The translations under genes and the position numbers were made by a program. Under the pieces are notes generated by a model. It saw only the letters and a program-made list of their open reading frames with translations, had not been told where the DNA came from and did not search any database. A DNA stretch of 64,000 bases from an uncultured bacterium (GTDB taxonomy: Bacteria; Babelota; Babeliae; Babelales; Babelaceae), in assembly GCA_963848965.1 (NCBI GenBank), contig CAWKFG010000004.1, forward strand, positions 192,001-256,000, read 5' to 3'. This document shows positions 19,976 through 29,284 of the stretch, piece by piece. Each line of letters opens with the position of its first letter. Position 1 is the first letter of the stretch.

Positions 19976-20284
19976 ATGAAACGCTTTATAGATAAATATC
20001 TGTTAGAATGGAAAAATAGTACCCTAAGAATGCCATTACTTATACGGGGTGCTCGACAGGTTGGAAAAACTCATGCTGCAAGAAATCTAGGTAAATCATT
20101 TGATGACTTTGTTGAAATCAATTTTGAACTCAACCCTCTCTCTACCATTTTTGAAAAAGATCTAGAACCTGAAAGGATTATACGCGATCTTGCCGTACTG
20201 CTTGGCCGCCCTCTTATTCAGGGCTTGCTCTTTCTCTTGAGTTTTATTCTAAAACTGACAACACTGTTGTCAGAAATTAGTTAG
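19976..20284 (+). pseudogene. 5' fragment of an AAA+/DUF4143 ATPase
   Basis: GARQVGKT Walker A; similarity to 20528..21842 ends around Walker B (~20240). Confidence 0.85.
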
Positions 20285-20295
20285 GGATCATCCTG

Positions 20296-20319
20296 CTCAA
20301 GGTTAAATTCCGAGCTCAA
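20296..20319 (+). repeat. 24-bp direct repeat, copy 1
   Basis: CTCAAGGTTAAATTCCGAGCTCAA; 22/24 identical to 21978..22001. Confidence 0.75.
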
Positions 20320-20440
20320 TGGTTTTTTATCTAATTTGATATTATTAAATCATAAGGACGAACTAGATAGCTTAAGCTCAAGATAATCCTTTACCTAGTT
20401 TCTTGTATTTTTTTGCTCAATTTTATATACTTAGTATAGA

Positions 20441-20528
20441 TTTTGACCGCGAAAGATCAAAATCATGCCCAAGTTTTAGCCCTAAATGGTTAAAATAAGG
20501 TCCAAATTTTAGCCATGTAAGGTAAAAA
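20441..20528. promoter_or_regulatory. Three 22-bp palindromic boxes TTTT(GA/AG)CC-N6-G(G/A)TNAAAA at exact 33-bp period
   Basis: Boxes start at 20441, 20474 and 20507; the last overlaps the ATG. Confidence 0.7.
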
Positions 20529-21842
20529 TGAGACGTTTAATTGATTCTTATCTTATAGAATGGAAAAATAGCTCAATCCGTAAATCTCTTATTATGGAGG
20601 GGAGCAAGACAAGTAGGAAAAACCTTTACTGTGAGAGAATTCGGCAAAACTTTTGAAAATTTTGTTGAGGTCAATCTTGAAAGTTCAGAAAAAGTAAGAA
20701 ATATTTTTGAGAAGGACTTACATCCTGATCGTATTTTAAGGGACTTAAGTTTACTAGTACAGCAAGATATTATACCTGGCAAAACACTTCTATTCCTTGA
20801 TGAAATACAAGCATCTCCTAGAGCATTTCTTTCTTTAAGATATTTTTATGAAGAGTTACCGAATCTTCATGTAATTGCTGCTGGGTCATTATTAGACTTT
20901 ACGATTCAACAAATTGGTATACCCGTTGGGAGAGTCAGTTCTCTGTATATATATCCAATGTCTTTCTATGAATTTTTACTGGCTATGAATGCAGATTTAG
21001 CAGCTGAAGCAATTTTAATTCATAACCCCAAAGATAAAATAGGAGAACCAATACACACTAAATTATTAGAATATTTAGCTGAATACCTAGCCGTAGGAGG
21101 AATGCCTGCAGCAATTAAATGTTGGAAAGATCAAAAAAATCCAAGAGAATGTTTTCAAATTCATCAATCTCTTATTGACGCTTATAAACAAGATTTTGAT
21201 AAATATGCAAAAGACTTTCAAATTAAATATCTTAAACTCTTATTTGAAAGAGCACTCTTAAAAATAGGAAAAAAATTTAAATATAGCTCACTTGGAGACT
21301 ATCGAAAAAGAGAATTAGAGCCTTGCCTAGATCTATTAGTTACAGCAGGCATAATGCATAAAATTTATAGAACAGATGGCAATGAAATTCCACTTGGAGT
21401 AGAATTCGGTTTAGATGATTTTAAAGTAATTTTTGTCGATATTGCACTCACTCAAGCTTTATTAAATATTAACTTAGCAGACTGGCTTTTGAATCCATTA
21501 CAAGATTTTATAAATAAAGGAGAAATTATTGAAGCATTTATCGGTCAAGAATTAATAGCTTATTCTGATCCTTATCAAAAAGCTCAGCTCTATTATTGGC
21601 GTAAAAATGAACCTTCTAGTCAAGCTGAAGTTGACTATCTTATACAAAAAAATAATTATGTAATTCCAACAGAAGTTAAAAGTGGAGCTACAGCTTTACT
21701 TAAAAGCTTAAAAATATTTTTAGAAAATAGGCCTAAAAGTCCCTATGGCATAAGATTTTCTATTAATGACTACTCTATACATCAGAAGGTTTATTCTTAC
21801 CCATTATATGCAGTTTATGGATTTTTACGATCAAAAGTTTGA
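20528..21842 (+). pseudogene. AAA+/DUF4143 ATPase with a single +1 frameshift near 20597 (possibly a sequence error)
   Basis: MRRLIDSYLIEWK from 20528; GARQVGKT is in the next frame; LFLDEIQ, AAGS, GGMP, AEVDYL, EVKSG motifs intact. Confidence 0.8.
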
Positions 21843-21977
21843 AGGAATCTAAGTTGAATAGCATTACGAAATTCATCATAAACTTCATAACCTATTTCTC
21901 TTCATAGCAGCAAGAATTGAATTACATTGCCTAAAGCACATCTTCTAGTAAGATTCTAAGGTTAAATATCAAGCTCC

Positions 21978-22001
21978 CTCAAGGTTAAATTCCGGGCTTA
22001 A
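21978..22001 (+). repeat. 24-bp direct repeat, copy 2
   Basis: CTCAAGGTTAAATTCCGGGCTTAA. Confidence 0.75.
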
Positions 22002-22031
22002 CATATTTGATCTAAAGTGGGCCGAAGCCTG

Positions 22032-22058
22032 TGCACTCCTAAGGAGATTCGAACTTCT
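22032..22058 (-). other. tRNA 3'-end-like fragment (possible att remnant)
   Basis: Minus strand AGAAG-TTCGAAT-CTCCT-TAGGAGT-G-CA resembles T-arm plus 3' acceptor strand; no 5' half. Confidence 0.4.
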
Positions 22059-22173
22059 ATTCTTTCTCCTAAAAAAATAACTAGAGAACTTACTTTATGT
22101 CTTTTTACTTTAATTTTTTAAACAATTATTATTATTGAGAGAATTATAATAAAAATTATAATAAAGGTGCTAT

Positions 22174-22494
22174 ATGTATCTAGTACCCATTTTATTATCA
22201 ATTTTCTTTTCTTTATCACTCTACGGTATAGAAAGAGAAGAGGCTGATCAAGTACAGCAAGTTAAACAAAAACCGCTAATACCATCATTGAATGATCTTA
22301 TATGGAGGCTTCATATTATGCGGCAACTACTAGGAATACCTATGACACTAGAAGAAATCGTAGAGCAACTACCTCGAGTAAGGATGTCAAAACTTTACTT
22401 TAAGATCTTAGATTTTTTAGAAGATCACGAGCTACGCGTAGGAATTCCATCCACAAAGAAGGAAATAGATAAAATGGCTCCTGAAAAGGGATAA
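22174..22494 (+). CDS. Secreted hypothetical protein (may extend to 22658 across frameshifts)
   Basis: Signal peptide LYG|IE; IPSLNDLI BC-box-like segment; open coding-like frames continue to TAA 22658. Confidence 0.6.
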   Translation: MYLVPILLSIFFSLSLYGIEREEADQVQQVKQKPLIPSLNDLIWRLHIMRQLLGIPMTLEEIVEQLPRVRMSKLYFKILDFLEDHELRVGIPSTKKEIDKMAPEKG

Positions 22495-22833
22495 ATGTTA
22501 TAGTAAAGTTCTAGGCCTTATGTATAATTATGGCATTATGTCTCCATGGAGCAAAAGCAAAAATTTATGATTACGCGAAACCTGCATTTGAGGAGCAATT
22601 GCCGGTGACGTATAGAACGTTAGCAAACCACCTTTTGAAGGCTTTAAAAAAGCCTTAACTGAAAGCTCAACTAAACTATTTTCTATGATAGTGCTTAAAT
22701 ATGTGATATAGCCGATCATTTGATATTCTTCTTACTTTTTTATATTTTATTGACATTTAAATATCTACTAAGGCAAATTTAAATTTATAATAGTTATAAG
22801 TAAGAACTAGACCATTTAACAAAGGAATTTATT

Positions 22834-23406
22834 ATGATCTCTTTAAACCAATGTTTAAGCCTATTTATAGTAACGTGTAGTTTCTTCCTATTACAGGGTA
22901 TAGCTCCGTACCCTTCTCATCCGTCTCCGGATACGTCTGCCCAGATTAAAAGCCTTAGCGACAATCCCATTAGACTCAGTGGTGTAGAATGTAAAGTTAA
23001 CATCGAAGATCATAGACCAGAATCATATACTGATAGTAAGATACCTAAATTTACTAATTACTTTACTCCTAAAGTTAGTTTAAACTGTTCAGGAAGCACA
23101 TATATACGTAAGGCAATTTTATTCCCTATAGATTGGGAACATTACATCAAACAAAATAGCGACTCTTTACCAGAAGCATTCAAGGAATATGCACTAGAAG
23201 AGAGACCAGAAATTCCTTTTAATGCAGTACCTTACACATCTAAGATATATCCTGGCAAAAGTTATCTTGCTCAAACTGAGGTTAGATCACTTAAAGAACA
23301 AGCCATAGACTACATTAAAAGGTATAAAGGGCAATATTTTACCATAAAGCAGTTGGAAGCTCTTGAAACTCTGCCTCAAGAACTTAAAGAAAAAATTAAC
23401 TTGTAG
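22834..23406 (+). CDS. Secreted protein with C-terminal BC/Cul-box-like module
   Basis: Signal peptide; tail SLKEQAIDYI...LPQELKEKI. Confidence 0.78.
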   Translation: MISLNQCLSLFIVTCSFFLLQGIAPYPSHPSPDTSAQIKSLSDNPIRLSGVECKVNIEDHRPESYTDSKIPKFTNYFTPKVSLNCSGSTYIRKAILFPIDWEHYIKQNSDSLPEAFKEYALEERPEIPFNAVPYTSKIYPGKSYLAQTEVRSLKEQAIDYIKRYKGQYFTIKQLEALETLPQELKEKINL

Positions 23407-24173
23407 TGGCTCGCAAGATAAGCTTTACTAATAATTACTTTCAGCAGATTAAGATTAATCGGAATGCGTTTAAGGCAAATGCTTTTGATCTGTTTGATAA
23501 AGCAATGGATTTCTTAGCCTTTTCCTTACCGGTAGCTGCTCACATTGAATCTGGAAACCCTGATCGTATTGAAACTCCTGCAATTCCTTATAGTGTTCTT
23601 CGTGAGGCTATTACTAATGCCTTAGTACATCGTGATTATAGTCATACAGGAGGATCAATAGCAATTGCCATATACGATGACCGAGTCAATATTACTAATG
23701 CTGGCTTCTTGCCTTCTGGCATTCGGATAAGCCAACTTGCTAAAGACCATCCTTCTATGCCACGCAATCCAGTAATTGCCCATGTATTTTATTTATGCCG
23801 AAAAATTGAAAAATGGGGCCGTGGTACCATCGATATGGTTGAAGATTGTAAAAGAGCGGGTAATCCGTCACCAAATTTTGAAGAGATTGGTAATCACTTC
23901 TCGGTAACATTACCATTTAAAAAACCTATCCGCAGCCTTGTACACACTAATTTAGAGCACATTGATTTAAGCAGACTAACTCCACGTCAGCAAGCAATTA
24001 TAAATGCTTTGAAAAATGGTCCTCTTAAAACGCAAGAAATCATAAAGGTCTTACACTTAAATTTAACCGATAGATCTATGCGACTAGAGCTTGCTCAACT
24101 TAAGAAAATGGGCCTAATTAAATCTAAAGGCAAAACCAAATCCTCAATATGGCTCTTGAATAACCATGAATAA
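23406..24173 (+). pseudogene. 5'-truncated HATPase_c_4 ('RecG C-terminal') + wHTH protein
   Basis: LREAITNALVHRDY, RNPVIA, IEKWGRG motifs and C-terminal HTH; usual N-terminal AlbA/Schlafen domain absent, no RBS. Confidence 0.75.
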
Positions 24174-24215
24174 TTCGGAAGTAATTCGGAAATAATTTGG
24201 AAATAATTCGGAAAT
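24172..24215 (+). repeat. Four tandem 11-bp repeats AATTCGGAAAT
   Basis: Units at 24172, 24183, 24194, 24205 directly at the stop codon of the wHTH gene. Confidence 0.85.
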
Positions 24216-24239
24216 TTTGCAAAACTTATTCACTAAAAA

Positions 24240-24803
24240 CTATGTCCAGAGGCTACCAAAATGTTTTGCAAAAAGGTCAATGCCTTCTTGAATTCTTTTT
24301 CGATGCTCCTCAAACTTATTATGATATTTCTCAAAAATTGGTCCCAAAATCTCAGATTGACGATCCCAAGCTAATGAATTTAAGGATTCATGCGGTTTAA
24401 GCCCTGCAAATCTTTGCTTATCTAATATCTCTAATTTTTTCAATTCTTTTCTGTACGGCTTTAATACCTGCGTGTATTCTTTATAATAATTTTCCACCTC
24501 TAGACCATTCCAGTCTCCGTGCTTTGCTATCCATCCAAAGGAGTAAACCATCTTGTCCAAACATAATAACCACTCATTAAATCTATCAGGGTTATCTGGA
24601 CCTTCGGGCTTTAGAGGATCAGGACCAAATGTAGCTGGATACCCAGTCATGGGATTTTTACCGTTATATAAATTTCTGTATTTTTTAAGAAAGGGATAAA
24701 TGATTCGAGCTAGAGTTACATCTCCGTTCCAAAGATCACGCCCTTCTACTTTAACTGAAACTTTATCTTTACTGTTTTTACTATATTCAATAGATACTTT
24801 CAC
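24240..24803 (-). CDS. Hypothetical protein resembling a phage-associated family
   Basis: DLWNGDVTLARIIYPFL...LDKMVYSF...IQEGIDLFAKHFGSLW pattern recalled from phage hypothetical proteins; not verified by search. Confidence 0.55.
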   Translation of the reverse strand: MKVSIEYSKNSKDKVSVKVEGRDLWNGDVTLARIIYPFLKKYRNLYNGKNPMTGYPATFGPDPLKPEGPDNPDRFNEWLLCLDKMVYSFGWIAKHGDWNGLEVENYYKEYTQVLKPYRKELKKLEILDKQRFAGLKPHESLNSLAWDRQSEILGPIFEKYHNKFEEHRKRIQEGIDLFAKHFGSLWT

Positions 24804-24873
24804 AATGAGACCCTATGCTTTACATACTATTAGCATTGAAGGCAATCCAAGATGAAGTTGATAAACGATCCTT

Positions 24874-24924
24874 TAAAGAAACTGGCTGTGCCAGGCGTAG
24901 CTCCATAGGAGCGAAGACTGGCGG
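24874..24924 (+). repeat. 51-bp direct repeat (att-like junction), distal copy
   Basis: 49/51 identical to 27877..27927, which overlaps the tRNA-Asp 3' end; contains hairpin GCTCC-ATA-GGAGC. Confidence 0.92.
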
Positions 24925-25059
24925 TACATAGTTGACGCGTTCAGGAACGGTCACGTTGAATTTGGCTTTAGGTTGCAGCATATTCAAACTATCTTTTCAA
25001 CCTTTAACTTGCCTCACCTTACAATCGAATCCTTACCTATAGATATAAAGGATTACTAA
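24919..25059 (+). pseudogene. Putative C-terminal tail of a tRNA-targeting large serine recombinase
   Basis: Open frame WRYIVDAFRNGHVEFGF...* beginning at the TGG that corresponds to the tRNA CCA; family assignment is from recalled WxxxxDxFR motif. Confidence 0.45.
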
Positions 25060-25233
25060 GAGTGACAGGCTCTTTTCAAGTTTACTGCAGTCTACGGTCT
25101 ACTCTTTCACCAAATTAGATAAGGATTTCCTTGCACCAACATAAAGAAGTTGTTAACTACTCTGAAATCAACTATGAAGCGTTTTGACTTTAGAGTATTA
25201 GAAAAATAGCTCTAAAGATAAATATCGAGCGCT

Positions 25234-26346
25234 TCATTTCTTTTCTTCTAGCAAGATTTCTTGTTTTTCAAGTTCAGCTTCAATCTCTTCAATGGTTGGC
25301 AGGCTGCTTTTGAATTCTTCGGGCAACTCATTTAAAATCTCTGTCATATATTGAGATACGCCAATCGGTGAGCGTATATTTCTTAAAGCATACTCAGCGA
25401 CAACATTATTTTTAGTCTTACATAGTAGTAAACCAATTGTAGGATTATCGTCTTTACCTTTTACCTTATCGTCAATTACTGCAAGATAGAAGTTAAGTTG
25501 ACCAATATCGCCAGGATCAAAATCTCTCGCTTTGAGCTCTATGGCTATATAACATCGCAATTGTATATGATAAAACATAAGGTCTACATAATAATCTTTA
25601 TCCTCCACTTCAAGGCGGTATTGCCTTCCTACAAGAGCAAAACCCTTACCAAGCTCAAGGAGAAACTTTTGGATATTATCTATAAGTCCTTGCTCTACAT
25701 CTTTTTCAATGTATTGCTTTTCCAAGGTCAAAAAATTAAAAATGTAAGGATCCTTGAAAGATTGTTGTGCCATATCAGATTGCGGCGTTGGTAATGTTTT
25801 TTGAAAATTATTAAGAGCTTTCCCTTCTCTATGATAAAGATTTGATTCTATCCAAATTTCAAGCATGCTCCTGCTCCAACCATGTTCTATGGCTTTTTGA
25901 GCATACCAAAATCGTTCATCAGTATCTTTTAACTTAGTTAATAAAATTACGTTGTGCCCCCAAGGTATATTAAAGATTGGGGTATCTTCAAATTGTCTCA
26001 CGGCTTGTGAGACTTTTTCATAAGCCAGGTAAAGGGCCCTCATTTTAAATAGATTCGCTCTAGAGAATCCGCCCATACCAGGAAAAGAGCTTTGAAGATC
26101 TTTAGCAAAATTCTCAATAACACTAGTCCCCCATTTTCCCTGTTTTTGCTTCTCTGCAAGAACTTCCCCAATATACCAGTAGAGCTTAATCAACTCTTTA
26201 CTTGCAGAAAGAACAGCTTTAACTTGTGCTTCTTGGATACGCTTTTTTACATCAGCCAATACTTGAGCATATTCTCTTAATTCTATACTTTTTGCATCAT
26301 TAATTGCAGCTTTGCTTCTGGCCTTCTTCGTCATAGTTTGTGCCAT
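25234..26346 (-). CDS. YhcG/DUF1016 family PD-(D/E)xK nuclease-domain protein
   Basis: LYWYIG, IPWGHN, FKDPYIFNFL, FLLELGKGF, VDLMFYH, IELK, GQLNFY motifs. Confidence 0.93.
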   Translation of the reverse strand: MAQTMTKKARSKAAINDAKSIELREYAQVLADVKKRIQEAQVKAVLSASKELIKLYWYIGEVLAEKQKQGKWGTSVIENFAKDLQSSFPGMGGFSRANLFKMRALYLAYEKVSQAVRQFEDTPIFNIPWGHNVILLTKLKDTDERFWYAQKAIEHGWSRSMLEIWIESNLYHREGKALNNFQKTLPTPQSDMAQQSFKDPYIFNFLTLEKQYIEKDVEQGLIDNIQKFLLELGKGFALVGRQYRLEVEDKDYYVDLMFYHIQLRCYIAIELKARDFDPGDIGQLNFYLAVIDDKVKGKDDNPTIGLLLCKTKNNVVAEYALRNIRSPIGVSQYMTEILNELPEEFKSSLPTIEEIEAELEKQEILLEEKK

Positions 26347-26392
26347 TCGCTTACCCCTTCTAGGATAGTTTAACTTTTTTATGATTTTATTC

Positions 26393-27055
26393 TTAGTTGA
26401 TAACTATACTCATAAAATTATTTACAGAATGGACCATTATAGGAGACCACAAAGATTGCGCTTTCTTAAATACATAACCAAATATCAAACCCATAAAAAT
26501 CATAGAACGTATTTCGCTCATTATCTCAAGAGCTCCTAAATTCTTTACCATAATCCAAATTGGAAAATGCATTATAGCAAATAAAACTGCACTAATAATA
26601 TTGGCTATCCAAAAACTCGATATCGATTCAATTTTTTGTAATAAATAGCCCCTAAAAACCACCTCCTCGCTTAACTCTACAAATATTATGCCGTTTAACC
26701 AAAAACCCACTGGTATATTAAAATTAAAAGTAATAAATCCTTTAATTAAGTAAATTATCAAACATCGTAGTGTAATTAGTATAAGCCCCGCAATGATACC
26801 TATAATCAAACCACGAAAAACATTATTATACAATTTCAAATATTTTAGAGGATTTTGCTTTAGCGTTAGCAATATGACAGGAAGTGCCCATATGATCAGC
26901 CTTACAAATAATGCCAATATATAATGACTTTTTAATAAAGTATGTGCATTTAGGTACACTTCAAATGTATGGGCAATCATGAACAATATAAAAAATATTG
27001 ATATTTCTAGTATTGTAATTTTTTTTTGATTAACTAACATGAAATCCATTTGCAT
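26393..27055 (-). CDS. CPBP (CAAX/Abi) family intramembrane metalloprotease
   Basis: EEVVFRG, FAIMH, HSVNN motifs; multiple TM helices. Confidence 0.92.
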   Translation of the reverse strand: MQMDFMLVNQKKITILEISIFFILFMIAHTFEVYLNAHTLLKSHYILALFVRLIIWALPVILLTLKQNPLKYLKLYNNVFRGLIIGIIAGLILITLRCLIIYLIKGFITFNFNIPVGFWLNGIIFVELSEEVVFRGYLLQKIESISSFWIANIISAVLFAIMHFPIWIMVKNLGALEIMSEIRSMIFMGLIFGYVFKKAQSLWSPIMVHSVNNFMSIVIN

Positions 27056-27106
27056 TATTCACCTGGTACTATTATAATATTTTGTAAATCCAAAAATATT
27101 TTGATA

Positions 27107-27763
27107 TCAGCTATCAAGCAATTTCTCGCTTTTCTGTAAGATTACACTATAAAAAGTTCTATGTGAACCGTAGCTTAACTTTTTCGCCCACGTTGATGGA
27201 TACTCTCTCAAATCATTGTACGTTAACGATTTAACATTCATAACGCTAAAACCAAGATTTTCAAGTTTTGGGATCATGGAATTTTGTAGGCATGCTTCAT
27301 TTAAGATAGGTAAATTAAGACGCTCAATCTCTTTTTTATCATGCTCTGGGTCATAACCAAAAATAACATGAACCAAAGCTTCAGTCTTACAAATTTTCTT
27401 AATGTTATTCCAAGTAAGCTCATGCGCTAAAACTATACCTTGAAGCAAAGTACCCCAAGGGAAGTTAATATAAACCTTATCGGCACTACCATTCAGCTCT
27501 CTAGGTAAGGTTTCAACAGAAGATAAGACGTATAGAACGTTAGCTAAACCACCCTTTGAGAGTTTTTTTAAAGCCTTAGCTGAAATCTCAACTAAGTTTT
27601 CGTGACAGGGATCAATACCAATAACCAGTGACTGCGGGTTTTCTTTAGCCATATGGTAAGCAAAAGAACCGTCACCGGTACCAATATCGACGATAACCAA
27701 AGGTCAATGTCATTGGTCGCTTCGATCTATTTCTACTAACTTTTTACCCTGAATAACTTTCAT
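27107..27763 (-). pseudogene. 16S rRNA (adenine-1408-N1)-methyltransferase, NpmA/KamB family; two in-frame TGA near the 5' end
   Basis: DIGTGDG, GIDP, NFPWGTLL, STWAKKL motifs; ATG 27763 gives MKVIQGKKLVEIDRSDQ*H*PLVIVDIG; remainder open from TTG 27700. Confidence 0.85.
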
Positions 27764-27876
27764 AACTTTTCTTTCTATTATAAACAGACTTTAGATTGTA
27801 TGCCAGCTGACTTGCGCGCCAAAGCTTTTAAGCGAGAGTAATGCTTTAGCCCGTGCCAGCCGCAACTTTAAACCTC

Positions 27877-27927
27877 TAAAGAAGCTGGCTGTGCCAGGCG
27901 TAGCTCCGTAGGAGCGAAGACTGGCGG
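27877..27927 (+). repeat. 51-bp direct repeat, tRNA-proximal copy
   Basis: Overlaps the last 6 nt of tRNA-Asp; hairpin GCTCC-GTA-GGAGC. Confidence 0.92.
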
Positions 27928-27999
27928 GGCTGACGAGGCTCGAACTCGCGACCTTCCGCGTGACAGGCGGACGCTCTGACCAAACTGAGCTACAGCCCC
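27922..27999 (-). tRNA. tRNA-Asp (GTC)
   Basis: Cloverleaf, anticodon loop CTGTCAC, TTCGA T-loop, encoded CCA. Confidence 0.97.
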
Positions 28000-28010
28000 G
28001 CTAAATTCTC

Positions 28011-28086
28011 TGGCTCCTCGGACAGGACTCGAACCTGTGACCTAACGATTAACAGTCGTGTGCTCTACCAACTGAGCTACCGAGGA
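28011..28086 (-). tRNA. tRNA-Asn (GTT)
   Basis: Cloverleaf, anticodon loop CTGTTAA, encoded CCA. Confidence 0.97.
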
Positions 28087-28095
28087 AAAATTTAA

Positions 28096-28171
28096 TGGTG
28101 GGCGGTGCTGGACTCGAACCAACGACCACCAGTTTGTAAGACTGGTGCTCTACCAACTGAGCTAACCGCCC
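28096..28171 (-). tRNA. tRNA-Val (TAC)
   Basis: Cloverleaf, anticodon loop CTTACAA, encoded CCA. Confidence 0.97.
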
Positions 28172-28375: not shown

Positions 28376-29284
28376 ATGGCGCGATTTGCTGATTATGTAA
28401 GGAATATCTTTTGGGTACTATTACTTTTACAGTTCCTTCCTGTATTTATTAAAAGTTTTAAGACCCACTACTCTGACCTTTTAGAAGCCAAAACTAAGGT
28501 GGGGGTCATCTGTATTGACGGAATAATCTACGAGTCAGATAAAAAGGTAAAAGAGCTTAAAAAGTTCTTTGAAGATAGTGATATAAAGGCTATTGTGCTT
28601 AAAATTGATTCTCCAGGAGGAGCTGCAGGCGGAGCTCAAGCACTGTATAACGAAATTAAACATTTTAAGAGTATTTATACAAATAAATATGTAATAGCTT
28701 ATGTTGAAAATATAGCCGCCTCTGGTGGGTACTATGTAGCATCTGCTGCAGACTATATTATTGCTACATCTGGGGCATTTATAGGAAGTATAGGTGTTTA
28801 TATTCAGCATCCTTATTTTAAAGATTTTATTGAACAATATAAGGTTAAATACGAAATAATAAAATCAGGTACCTATAAGGGTATGGGTAACATGTTTTTA
28901 GAACTCACTGATGAACAACGCAAGCTTTTACAAGGAGTTACTAATAACGTACACCAACAGTTTATTCGAGATGTAGCACAACAACGACCTGGCCTTGGGG
29001 ATACAAAGCTGTGGGGAGAAGCTCAAATATTTAGTGGAGAACAAGCTCTAAAGCTCAAGCTCATTGATGCTGTTGGCTCTCAGTCTACTGTTGTTAAAAC
29101 ACTAGAAGATAATGCCCACATTGAAGGCAAAATAGATTGGATAAAACCATCAAGAAAGCTTGGTATTCTTTCCTCACTTATTGGACAGGATAGCGATGAA
29201 GATAGTGGATCCTATCTTCATTCATTAGTCTCTACCGTATGTAAAGTAATTGAAGACCGTTATACGACCACTATTAGGACTTAA
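28376..29284 (+). CDS. sppA: Signal peptide peptidase SppA (S49)
   Basis: IDSPGG, AASGGYY, GSIGV, KSGTYK motifs. Confidence 0.93.
   Translation: MARFADYVRNIFWVLLLLQFLPVFIKSFKTHYSDLLEAKTKVGVICIDGIIYESDKKVKELKKFFEDSDIKAIVLKIDSPGGAAGGAQALYNEIKHFKSIYTNKYVIAYVENIAASGGYYVASAADYIIATSGAFIGSIGVYIQHPYFKDFIEQYKVKYEIIKSGTYKGMGNMFLELTDEQRKLLQGVTNNVHQQFIRDVAQQRPGLGDTKLWGEAQIFSGEQALKLKLIDAVGSQSTVVKTLEDNAHIEGKIDWIKPSRKLGILSSLIGQDSDEDSGSYLHSLVSTVCKVIEDRYTTTIRT

Follow-up and report, generated by a model that had tools for sequence, protein, structure and literature searches.

The tRNA-Asp locus

The window, i.e., the whole 64,000-nucleotide stretch of DNA analysed here, which belongs to contig C4 of the assembly, carries three genes beside a tRNA cluster, enclosed between the two copies of one direct-repeat pair (24870–24924 and 27873–27927). 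The copies are 55 nt long, identical at 52 of 55 positions (95%) and 3003 bp apart from start to start. The features of the locus are as follows.

24870–24918, minus strand: far copy of the tRNA-Asp trailer hairpin, putative host-side ‘B’ arm of an attL-type joint (direct repeat; trailer-family nhmmer match C4:216923-216870, E = 9e-11)
24919–24924, plus strand: 6-mer TGGCGG, complement of the last 6 nt of tRNA-Asp, with the putative crossover at its 5th–6th bases (sequence and reconstructed attP sites)
24919–25059, plus strand: orphan segment coding for the C-terminal tail of a large serine recombinase (LSR), putative element-side P′ arm, including the GTTGAC arm at 24931–24936 (tail HMM, E = 2.5e-12)
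25234–26346, minus strand: cargo gene 1, YhcG/DUF1016 PDDEXK nuclease family, 370 aa (Pfam YhcG_C 5.6e-66, DUF1016_N 7.9e-39)
26393–27055, minus strand: cargo gene 2, CPBP/Rce1-like intramembrane protease, 220 aa (Pfam Rce1-like 1.3e-19)
27107–27772, minus strand: cargo gene 3, broken homologue of the NpmA-family 16S rRNA (A1408) methyltransferases (Pfam NpmA 4.5e-60, 203 bits for a cut-off of 60)
27873–27927, minus strand: near copy, native trailer hairpin and the last 6 nt of tRNA-Asp, putative attB-type joint (direct repeat, trailer family, RNA fold)
27922–28171, minus strand: cluster of tRNA-Val(tac), tRNA-Asn(gtt) and tRNA-Asp(gtc), the anchor of the locus (ARAGORN, Rfam)
28376–29284, plus strand: SppA-like S49 peptidase, the conserved neighbour across the tRNA cluster (Pfam)

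An earlier note on this DNA had described a pair of 51-bp repeats 3003 bp apart, of which only 6 nt are shared with the tRNA. This pair is real, and the 51-mer is contained in the 55-nt repeat. The tRNA-Asp(gtc) gene lies at 27922–27999 on the minus strand (ARAGORN; Rfam score 69.3 bits), and its overlap with the near repeat copy is indeed restricted to 27922–27927, TGGCGG, the complement of the CCGCCA end of the tRNA. The remaining 49 nt of this copy are tRNA trailer. The nested hairpin noticed in the repeat was likewise recovered, in that the trailer folded as RNA gives a hairpin in which the CCA end is also paired, and the open frame said to begin at the TGG of the far copy is present (24919–25056, 46 codons, then a stop). 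No recombinase was found in the window, in agreement with the reported lack of an integrase, and the unit between the repeats accordingly carries none.

Among Rfam families, only the three tRNAs score above the curated thresholds between 24700 and 28300; no family matches the trailer, the tail or an IS110-type element. The segment after the far copy was considered as a decayed tRNA, a reading that was rejected when ARAGORN found none there. On the near side, 27773–27872 contains no recognisable LSR remnant. The SppA-like peptidase adjoins the Val-Asn-Asp tRNA cluster in 15 of 24 family loci. To the left of the unit, a 187-aa ORF (24240–24803) has a homologue in one of the 40 other genomes searched; this ORF proved uninformative as a marker of the empty site, the sole homologue being located near tRNA-Glu/Lys.

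A recombinase tail at the far joint

The frame that follows the far copy matches the C-terminal tail of the intact LSR P0059 (residues 483–512) at 18 of 30 positions with E = 1e-10 in a single BLASTP comparison, which bears out the earlier proposal of a serine-recombinase type of element. LSRs of this family possess Resolvase, Recombinase and Zn-ribbon domains (Pfam). The gene terminates within a convergent tRNA in 27 of the 30 LSR loci examined, as expected for an attachment site that overlaps the recombinase 3′ end, and in 7 of those 27 the tRNA is the tRNA-Asp(gtc) of the Val-Asn-Asp cluster. Counted from the side of the tRNA, 3 of the 24 tRNA-Asp loci in the family have a close LSR and one has a distant LSR.

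Comparison of these loci suggests that in the LSR family of Dependentiae the recombinase gene itself contains the attachment site, placed at a Trp codon that does not vary and whose TGG is complementary to CCA. In the attP sites reconstructed for G135 and for contig C1 of the window's own genome (G000), 6-bp inverted arms flank 14 nt and are centred on the 5th–6th bases of the 6-mer. The spacing between the 6-mer and GTTGAC at the far joint of the window is 6 nt, the same as in G135.

The far joint possesses a host-side arm, i.e., the 49-nt trailer, and a short common core, with the identity to the tRNA ending after 6 nt. The far trailer copy is thus fused through the 6-mer to a detached LSR tail and the attachment site appears to lie inside the LSR gene, suggesting that the far joint is an attL-type scar (trailer, TGGCGG, then LSR tail) and that the near joint has the form of an intact attB-type site (trailer, TGGCGG, then tRNA-Asp). 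The assignment of the far joint as attL-type follows from its left arm, which is tRNA trailer rather than the 3′ end of a recombinase.

The single LSR gene of this genome (P0001) terminates within tRNA-Arg(tcg), and a tblastn search with P0001 across the assembly returned only C1:377112-378569, with no fragment elsewhere. The whole assembly contains two Phage_integrase matches, both proteins of about 310 aa, and one Resolvase match, all on contig C1. Since the assembly is only 88.7% complete, the LSR counts are lower bounds.

Trailers and tails across the genome

The trailer directly follows the CCA in about 10 of the 34 tRNA/tmRNA genes of this genome, and a variant of it is present at 9 of 24 tRNA-Asp genes of relatives. 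Compensatory changes occur in the trailer stem beside the CCA. The trailer hairpin therefore reads as a native tRNA feature of the phylum, and the repeat, rather than being confined to the tRNA-Asp locus, is one member of a tRNA-trailer family. A trailer search with nhmmer (E ≤ 1e-5) yielded 16 matches, 9 of which follow tRNAs and 7 of which are orphans. Six of the orphans directly abut a tail match; for the seventh, which is on the small contig C3, the adjoining tail is no more than a weak tblastn fragment. With that weak case included, each of the 16 strong copies has a tRNA before it or an LSR tail beside it, unlike a dispersed high-copy repeat unrelated to tRNAs.

A search of G000 with the tail HMM gave 20 copies with E ≤ 0.012, including 15 on which the model had been trained, so that 20 tail relics stand against one LSR gene. 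The joints carry the 6-mer of the tRNA that anchors them, i.e., TGGCGG for Asp, TGGCGT for Glu and TGGCGC for Arg-tcg, while the Arg-tct joints have TGGTGT in 5 of 7 uninterrupted copies. The cognate 6-mer is also found at joints in G135, G004 and G060. Within G000, the same layout of trailer, core, tail and cargo is seen as an array of 8 joints at tRNA-Arg(tct) and as 2 units at tRNA-Glu. About 20 apparent LSR scars seem to mark stacks of gene cassettes at the tRNA genes of this protist-dwelling bacterium. The integron-like array that had been proposed at a tRNA finds its counterpart at these two tRNAs, whereas at tRNA-Asp, where cassettes were thought to be stacked, a single cassette is demonstrable.

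Cargo genes

The three cargo genes are accessory. None of them occurs within 1.5 kb of the tRNA cluster at any of the 24 family loci, which is not the pattern of genes that are syntenic and core in relatives. Homologues of YhcG, often fragmentary, are present in 18 of 31 family genomes and NpmA homologues in 2 of 31; the CPBP protease gene is confined to 1 of 31, G000 itself. The NpmA-type gene is interrupted after codon 20 by two in-frame TGA codons. The unit as a whole is flanked by att-derived direct repeats and lacks recombination and transfer genes.

No sequencing run contained more than 0.11 of the sampled words of the locus. In the four metagenome runs examined, contig coverage is limited to the tRNA cluster, the trailer and the CPBP gene; the segment 26361–27051 is approximately 98% identical in contigs of all four, with unlike flanks. 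Two ‘skips’ from approximately 24903/24904 to approximately 27886/27911 were considered as a possible empty site, with sides of only 23–24 nt and 88% likeness. They are no evidence of an empty site, because they derive from tRNA-Asp and trailer sequences of other organisms.

Related genomes

In G060, the order is tRNA-Asp, trailer, cargo, full-length LSR, cargo, tail and trailer, so that a cassette without a recombinase sits precisely in the gap from the tRNA core to a full-length LSR. G142 and G152 each have a second LSR (31% identical) at the tRNA tip, and the first LSR, 11–13 kb away, reads into a full tail; these two are true attP-like tandem joints. G027 has six tail copies 0.8 kb apart and six cassettes of paired small ORFs which, named by eye, resemble toxin–antitoxin pairs. 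The G027 tail copies have no conserved trailer arm, and thus trailer duplication is not universal.

Origin of the unit

We consider it probable that 24870–27927 is a recombinase-less gene cassette located between two joints that were made by the tRNA-targeting LSR family of Dependentiae. Three elements of this reading are shown by the sequences, i.e., how the joints are built, that the far one is homologous to the LSR tail, and that related LSRs use the same tRNA. In the proposed mechanism, the crossover would take place within the attP inside the recombinase gene, a few bases past the invariant Trp codon, and because the attP sits there, insertion at the tRNA 3′ tip would remove the last ~30 codons of the recombinase, i.e., the tail. 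The severed tail would then come to lie at the far end of the element, joined to the displaced tRNA trailer. The likeliest route from such an insertion to a unit of attL, cargo and attB would be recombination at the common core. Either a circle with a trailer–core–tail site could have entered at the tRNA, or a helper LSR element could have excised from a state like that of G060 and left the cassette behind; the layout of G060 matches the intermediate proposed for the latter. The cassettes could yet be movable in trans by the one LSR of the genome. However, canonical LSRs are described as recombining attP with attB, with attL × attR requiring a directionality factor (excerpted text of PMC12286644), and several points speak against the proposed explanation: the window has no recombinase, the near side bears no recognisable LSR remnant, the G027 tails come without a conserved trailer arm, a trailer–core–tail circle recombining with attB would be a non-standard LSR pair, no candidate directionality factor was found, and homologous recombination within the 55-nt trailers would yield the same product.

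The last of these points belongs to an alternative that we regard as unlikely, though one to be taken seriously, in which the far joint is an old LSR scar, whereas the cassette and the second trailer arose via homologous recombination or duplication among tRNA trailers and were never site-specifically mobile. The trailers do form a family with near-identical members at other tRNAs, a crossover anywhere in 55 nt of 95% identity would suffice for the structure, and neither a recombinase nor a candidate directionality factor was found in the unit. However, trailer, core and tail with cargo recur in 2 units at tRNA-Glu and 8 joints at tRNA-Arg(tct), with the 6-mer proper to each tRNA, which, together with the position of the G060 cassette and with the lack of any trailer copy free of a tRNA or tail at E ≤ 1e-5, argues for LSR-made joints.

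The remaining alternatives are far less probable. The earlier note had read the far joint as attP-like, with recombinase 3′ end, core and tail marking the meeting point of two tandem elements, and such joints do occur in G142 and G152, but we find this reading very improbable for the window: the arm on the left side of the 6-mer consists of tRNA trailer, which matches the near copy at 52 of 55 positions and contains an in-frame stop codon, and no LSR fragment was found. Classical genomic islands, too, typically have direct repeats at a tRNA and accessory cargo, and on this reading the repeats would be the att core of a tyrosine integrase that has since been lost. This is scarcely credible here: the repeat reaches no more than 6 nt into the tRNA, homology links the element-side arm to an LSR tail, the relatives have LSRs rather than tyrosine integrases at tRNA-Asp, and the window has no tyrosine recombinase, the two of the assembly being on another contig. 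It would take an equally implausible coincidence for a dispersed REP- or MITE-like repeat to have landed beside the tRNA by chance; the repeat has several genomic copies, as this would require, but the strong ones divide into the 9 that follow tRNA genes and the 7 that lie beside an LSR tail (on C3 a weak fragment).

If the LSR-made cassettes are still movable, a bolder and more tentative idea may be entertained, namely that Dependentiae run a serine-recombinase counterpart of the integron. The tRNA tip would be the fixed insertion site, the trailer–core–tail joints would be the cassette sites, and one LSR acting in trans would excise, re-insert and shuffle recombinase-less defence, toxin–antitoxin and resistance-type cassettes; the near-identical trailer arms within an array would be the footprint of this shuffling, gone through many times over, and loss or restoration of the tail would switch the state of the enzyme. 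Such a system would represent a second, mechanistically unrelated path to integron-like gene capture, in the small genomes of host-dependent bacteria. The cassettes may also account for one class of enigmatic “mini-ORFs” and of repeats at tRNA ends that such genomes contain.

Comparison with known systems

Serine integrases are prized for genome engineering and are viewed as enzymes with one attP and one attB, the site being outside their own gene. The Dependentiae family differs in that it appears to aim at the universal CCA tip of tRNA genes, to rewrite its own C-terminus with each integration and to leave stacks of recombinase-less cassettes. It shares with the phiC31/Bxb1/A118 class the Resolvase, Recombinase and Zn-ribbon domains, a short core instead of a long identity block, attP inverted arms around a central dinucleotide, and hybrid attL/attR joints after integration. 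Unlike in that class, the putative attP is within the recombinase ORF, the targets are tRNA 3′ tips, and many orphan attL-type joints border recombinase-less cassettes. Literature searches returned no description of an LSR with attP in its own gene at tRNA tips together with recombinase-less cassettes, and no work on serine recombinases in Dependentiae. As judged from the listed matches, a search on LSRs, tRNA genes, attP and genomic islands gave nothing on this design, and among the matches listed for serine integrase gene truncation upon integration there was none that fits. According to a passage of PMC9262239, tRNA genes are not among the sites used by the serine integrases of mycobacteriophages. 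In the Ralstonia phages phiRSM1 and phiRSM3, according to a section of PMC4471427, the integration site of a serine recombinase is formed by the 13 bp at the 3′ end of a tRNA-Ser gene, so that a tRNA 3′ end is targeted there too; however, this is a small recombinase of the resolvase/invertase type with an intergenic attP, and cassette arrays, as seen in Dependentiae, are not described in that section.

The arrays in G000 and G027 resemble integrons in that accessory, toxin–antitoxin and defence cassettes are split by a repeated site and have one fixed anchor. In contrast to integrons, the Dependentiae arrays are without an IntI-type tyrosine recombinase (the two Phage_integrase genes of the assembly being on C1), what recurs in place of attC is a tRNA trailer with one half of an LSR attP, and the anchor is a tRNA gene. 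Streptococcal CIMEs, which belong to tyrosine-integrase ICEs, are flanked by att repeats, have lost their recombination module, can be moved by a related adjacent helper and undergo tandem accretion. The unit in the window is likewise att-flanked and without a recombination module, whereas its helper would be an LSR and its joints are apparently attL- and attB-type.

The Mx8 integrase, like those of the SSV type, is a tyrosine recombinase. For both, integration is reported to alter or split the 3′ part of int, leaving the severed piece at the element's opposite end, and attP is inside the int gene as it appears to be in the Dependentiae LSR (excerpts of PMC6070905 and PMC5861418, the latter also classing the SSV-type integrases as tyrosine recombinases). 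An attP within a gene is also known from mycobacteriophage integration-dependent immunity, in which, as a section of PMC9262239 describes, the protein loses a C-terminal tag and is thereby altered when the phage integrates at a tRNA; there, however, it is the repressor gene that is cut, and the enzyme is a tyrosine integrase.

Unlike the Mx8 and SSV enzymes, the Dependentiae LSR would lose only a short tail. In the predicted structure of the intact P0059 (29-row alignment), the mean pLDDT is 77 and the tail (residues 482–516) falls below 50, suggesting that the tail is probably unfolded. Because only this short segment is lost, the truncated LSR probably keeps its folded domains whole. The predicted structure gives no clue to the role of the tail, and a regulatory role would be only a guess. 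Among close relatives, a quick tree indicates that the LSRs change their target tRNA.

The attachment joints at tRNA-Asp

A repeat search recovered a single direct-repeat pair, whose 55-nt copies are 52/55 identical and lie 3003 bp apart, with three genes between them:

24870-24924, far copy of the repeat
24919-25056, open frame that begins with the TGG in the far copy, then a stop
25234-26346, minus strand, YhcG/DUF1016 nuclease
26393-27055, minus strand, CPBP/Rce1-like protease
27107-27772, minus strand, NpmA-family 16S rRNA methyltransferase homologue, interrupted after codon 20 by two TGA codons in frame
27873-27927, near copy of the repeat
28171-27922, minus strand, tRNA-Val, tRNA-Asn, tRNA-Asp cluster

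The near copy overlaps tRNA-Asp by the last 6 nt only, and the remaining 49 nt constitute the trailer, i.e., the DNA directly after CCA, which RNA folding predicts to form a nested hairpin with the CCA end paired within the fold. The repeat with its 6-nt tRNA overlap and the open frame at the distal TGG had both been claimed in the earlier note and were borne out, as was the absence of an integrase: domain searches and a large serine recombinase (LSR) search found no recombinase gene in the window.

In the source assembly (1.73 Mb, five contigs, 88.7% complete), where the window is C4:192001-256000 and which the names of protein homologues assign to the Dependentiae (TM6), a list of all 34 sequences downstream of tRNA/tmRNA genes showed a like hairpin directly 3′ of CCA in about 10, and one follows tRNA-Asp in 9 of 24 loci from other genera of the family, while pairing in the stem adjoining CCA is kept through changes on both sides. 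The trailer is therefore a native host feature, not brought by the element. An nhmmer profile gave 16 matches at E ≤ 1e-5 in this genome, although 13 of these belong to the profile itself and so are bound to match. Nine of the 16 come after a tRNA gene, the other seven being orphans. The hairpin (window 27873-27921) likewise comes straight after the encoded CCA in many tRNA genes of Dependentiae and in the tmRNA gene (loci L064, L068, L069, L072, L075-L077 and L079, besides the source genome). In its outer stem the discriminator, CCA and 3 further nt pair with a complement lying downstream, and the differences between tRNAs are compensatory. The hairpin has no match among Rfam families and may be a signal for processing or termination.

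The recombinase family and its targets

The sequence 3′ of the far copy recurs in the source genome, the copies differing mostly at third codon positions of the frame. The sole LSR of the assembly, P0001 (486 aa; C1:378569-377112), has a frame that enters a convergent tRNA-Arg(tcg), its last Trp codon being the complement of CCA. A protein search yielded 2185 relatives; the top 120 share 64-72% identity, and most have a length of 484-486 aa. Among the 35 of these 120 whose C-termini were inspected, many tails of the longer relatives are a tRNA read in reverse. Set against LSRs, a check suggested in the earlier note, the window frame proved homologous to a different C-terminal segment (tail), one that is not reverse-read tRNA: in one pairwise comparison, 18/30 residues match the tail of P0059, an intact homologue (E 1e-10). 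An HMM of 21 tail sequences, cut by coordinates, finds 20 copies in the source genome at E ≤ 0.012, of which 15 are training sequences and two lie on C3, a 9.5-kb contig that may duplicate a portion of C1. Of the seven orphan trailers, six adjoin a tail copy without a gap, and the seventh (C3) adjoins a weak tail fragment only (tblastn E 6.6). This distribution speaks against a dispersed repeat unrelated to tRNAs.

LSR matches at E ≤ 1e-30 occur in 54 of 151 sampled genomes of the phylum, many with several copies or fragments, a patchy distribution as expected for a mobile element. At 27 of the 30 best loci, the LSR frame ends inside a convergent tRNA; the other three (G142, G152 and G060) read on into a full tail, all 2.7-13 kb from a Val-Asn(-Asp) cluster. 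In a quick tree with SH-aLRT support only, targets change between sister enzymes, and P0001 groups, weakly supported, among Asp-targeting LSRs.

Target tRNAs of the LSR loci
Glu-ttc, 10 loci
Asp-gtc, 7 loci
Arg-tcg, 3 loci
Arg-tct, 3 loci
Gln, 2 loci
Glu-ctc, 1 locus
Met, 1 locus

The tail homology and these 27/30 loci uphold a serine-recombinase type with its att site at the recombinase 3′ end, whereas the proposed attP-like joint between two tandem elements is wrong here: the far joint reads trailer, 6-mer (complement of the last 6 nt of the tRNA), tail, and is attL-type, and the near joint reads trailer, 6-mer, tRNA, and is attB-type. Genomes G142 and G152 do show genuine tandem accretion, including an attP-like joint: a second, 31% identical LSR sits at the tRNA tip.

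attP was reconstructed by joining the recombinase-side and tail-side arms of simple elements (genome G135 and source contig C1), giving 6-bp inverted arms around 14 nt whose midpoint lies at bases 5-6 of the shared 6-mer. The far joint of the window is spaced alike. Each joint bears the 6-mer of its anchoring tRNA in the source genome, and also in G135, G004 and G060.

Joint 6-mers in the source genome
Asp, TGGCGG
Glu, TGGCGT, two copies at the tRNA-Glu locus (C4:518937 and 521609)
Arg-tcg, TGGCGC
Arg-tct, TGGTGT in 5/7 uninterrupted copies, the other 2 decayed

Two further TGGCGT copies lie on contig C2 without a tRNA-Glu anchor. The cognate 6-mers and the attP centring would fit a serine-recombinase crossover inside the 6-mer. 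The predicted fold of an intact LSR (P0059) is confident to about residue 480 and the tail has pLDDT <50, so the integrated, truncated LSR probably keeps all folded domains.

A 1.18-kb IS110-family element (DEDD_Tnp_IS110 + Transposase_20) is present in three copies, 99.7-100% identical (C1:386006-387189, C1:396656-397839, C4:450972-452147; loci L008, L010). Because all three lie at the same point of LSR joints, between the post-trailer 5-mer and the GTTGAC/GTTTAC arm, it appears to target the LSR attachment core. Two further remnants, each a right end alone, are located at C1:387950 and C3:8645.

Related arrays and origin of the unit

The same architecture recurs at tRNA-Glu, with two joints and GIY-YIG and AlbA_2/HATPase_c_4 cargo genes. 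At this locus (L005, C4:518000-527000), a paralogous 80-aa GIY-YIG gene follows each trailer copy, about two-thirds identical by eye. At tRNA-Arg(tct), which no LSR adjoins in the source genome, eight joints spaced 1.3-6.8 kb apart separate the genes of a histidine phosphatase, a tRNA-binding protein, AAA_14/DUF4143 ATPases, AbiEi/AbiEii, Fic, an ankyrin protein and YhcG pieces. A reverse transcriptase/maturase gene of a group II intron splits one YhcG/DUF1016 gene there (C4:443931-447109; L010 11932-15110). Left of the 6-mer, the arms in each of these arrays look like the trailer that the anchoring tRNA has at present. A very integron-like mini-array was observed in genome G027 (C8, L044, 3224-7185), 44-48 kb from an LSR at tRNA-Asp: six LSR-tail repeats about 0.8 kb apart, with two adjacent small toxin-antitoxin-like ORFs in each interval (RelE/HigB-like, PIN-like; named by eye) and only about 4 nt conserved left of the 6-mer.

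Formally, an attL-cargo-attB unit would arise if a trailer-core-tail circle recombined at the core with the tRNA site or, equally, if the LSR element were excised from a state like that of G060, which reads tRNA-Asp, hairpin trailer, 2.7 kb of recombinase-less cargo, full-length LSR, 4.6 kb, tail, 6-mer, trailer. Both pairings are non-standard, since a canonical LSR acts on attP plus attB and requires a directionality factor to run in reverse (PMC12286644). A live alternative for the origin of such units is homologous recombination inside the trailer. Cassette mobility is plausible.

CIMEs and the IS1111-attC group are further comparison systems, and the Mx8 integrase is a tyrosine enzyme. According to PMC9262239, tRNA genes are not targets of the serine integrases of mycobacteriophages, whereas most sampled loci of the present LSR family end inside them. 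Other described systems are phiRSM phages with a small serine recombinase, the Ser-tRNA 3′ end as target and attP between two genes (PMC4471427); Mx8, whose attP lies within the int coding sequence, so that integration creates a new int 3′ end (PMC6070905); and SSV-type integrases, tyrosine recombinases whose internal att site interrupts int on integration (PMC5861418). Full-text literature searches found no description of an LSR with such a layout, or of such cassette arrays.

Cargo of the window

The cargo is accessory. None of the three cargo genes lies within 1.5 kb of the tRNA cluster at any of 24 family loci, so that the core synteny raised in the earlier note as an alternative was not encountered, and SppA is kept on the other side of the cluster at 15 of them. 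The NpmA-like gene occurs in 2 of 31 family genomes, the CPBP gene in 1 and YhcG, often as fragments, in 18. The NpmA family is known for aminoglycoside-resistance 16S rRNA methyltransferases; the homologue seen in only 1 of the 30 other family genomes is partial.

Left of the far joint, window 19976-24803 holds more genes of kinds found in cassette arrays elsewhere, namely a disrupted AAA_14/DUF4143 ATPase (19976-20284 and 20631-21842) and a truncated HATPase_c_4 protein (23406-24173), together with small orphan ORFs and an 11-bp tandem repeat (24169-24230). This stretch probably represents cassette DNA of greater age that has decayed and shows no detectable joints. The CPBP gene alone (window 26361-27051) matches contigs compared from four metagenome runs at about 98% identity, with 14-18 differences over about 690 nt (runs from sediment, soil, freshwater, one unlabelled); the flanks diverge at the same two boundaries, and the gene looks like a gene-sized unit recently moved between contexts.
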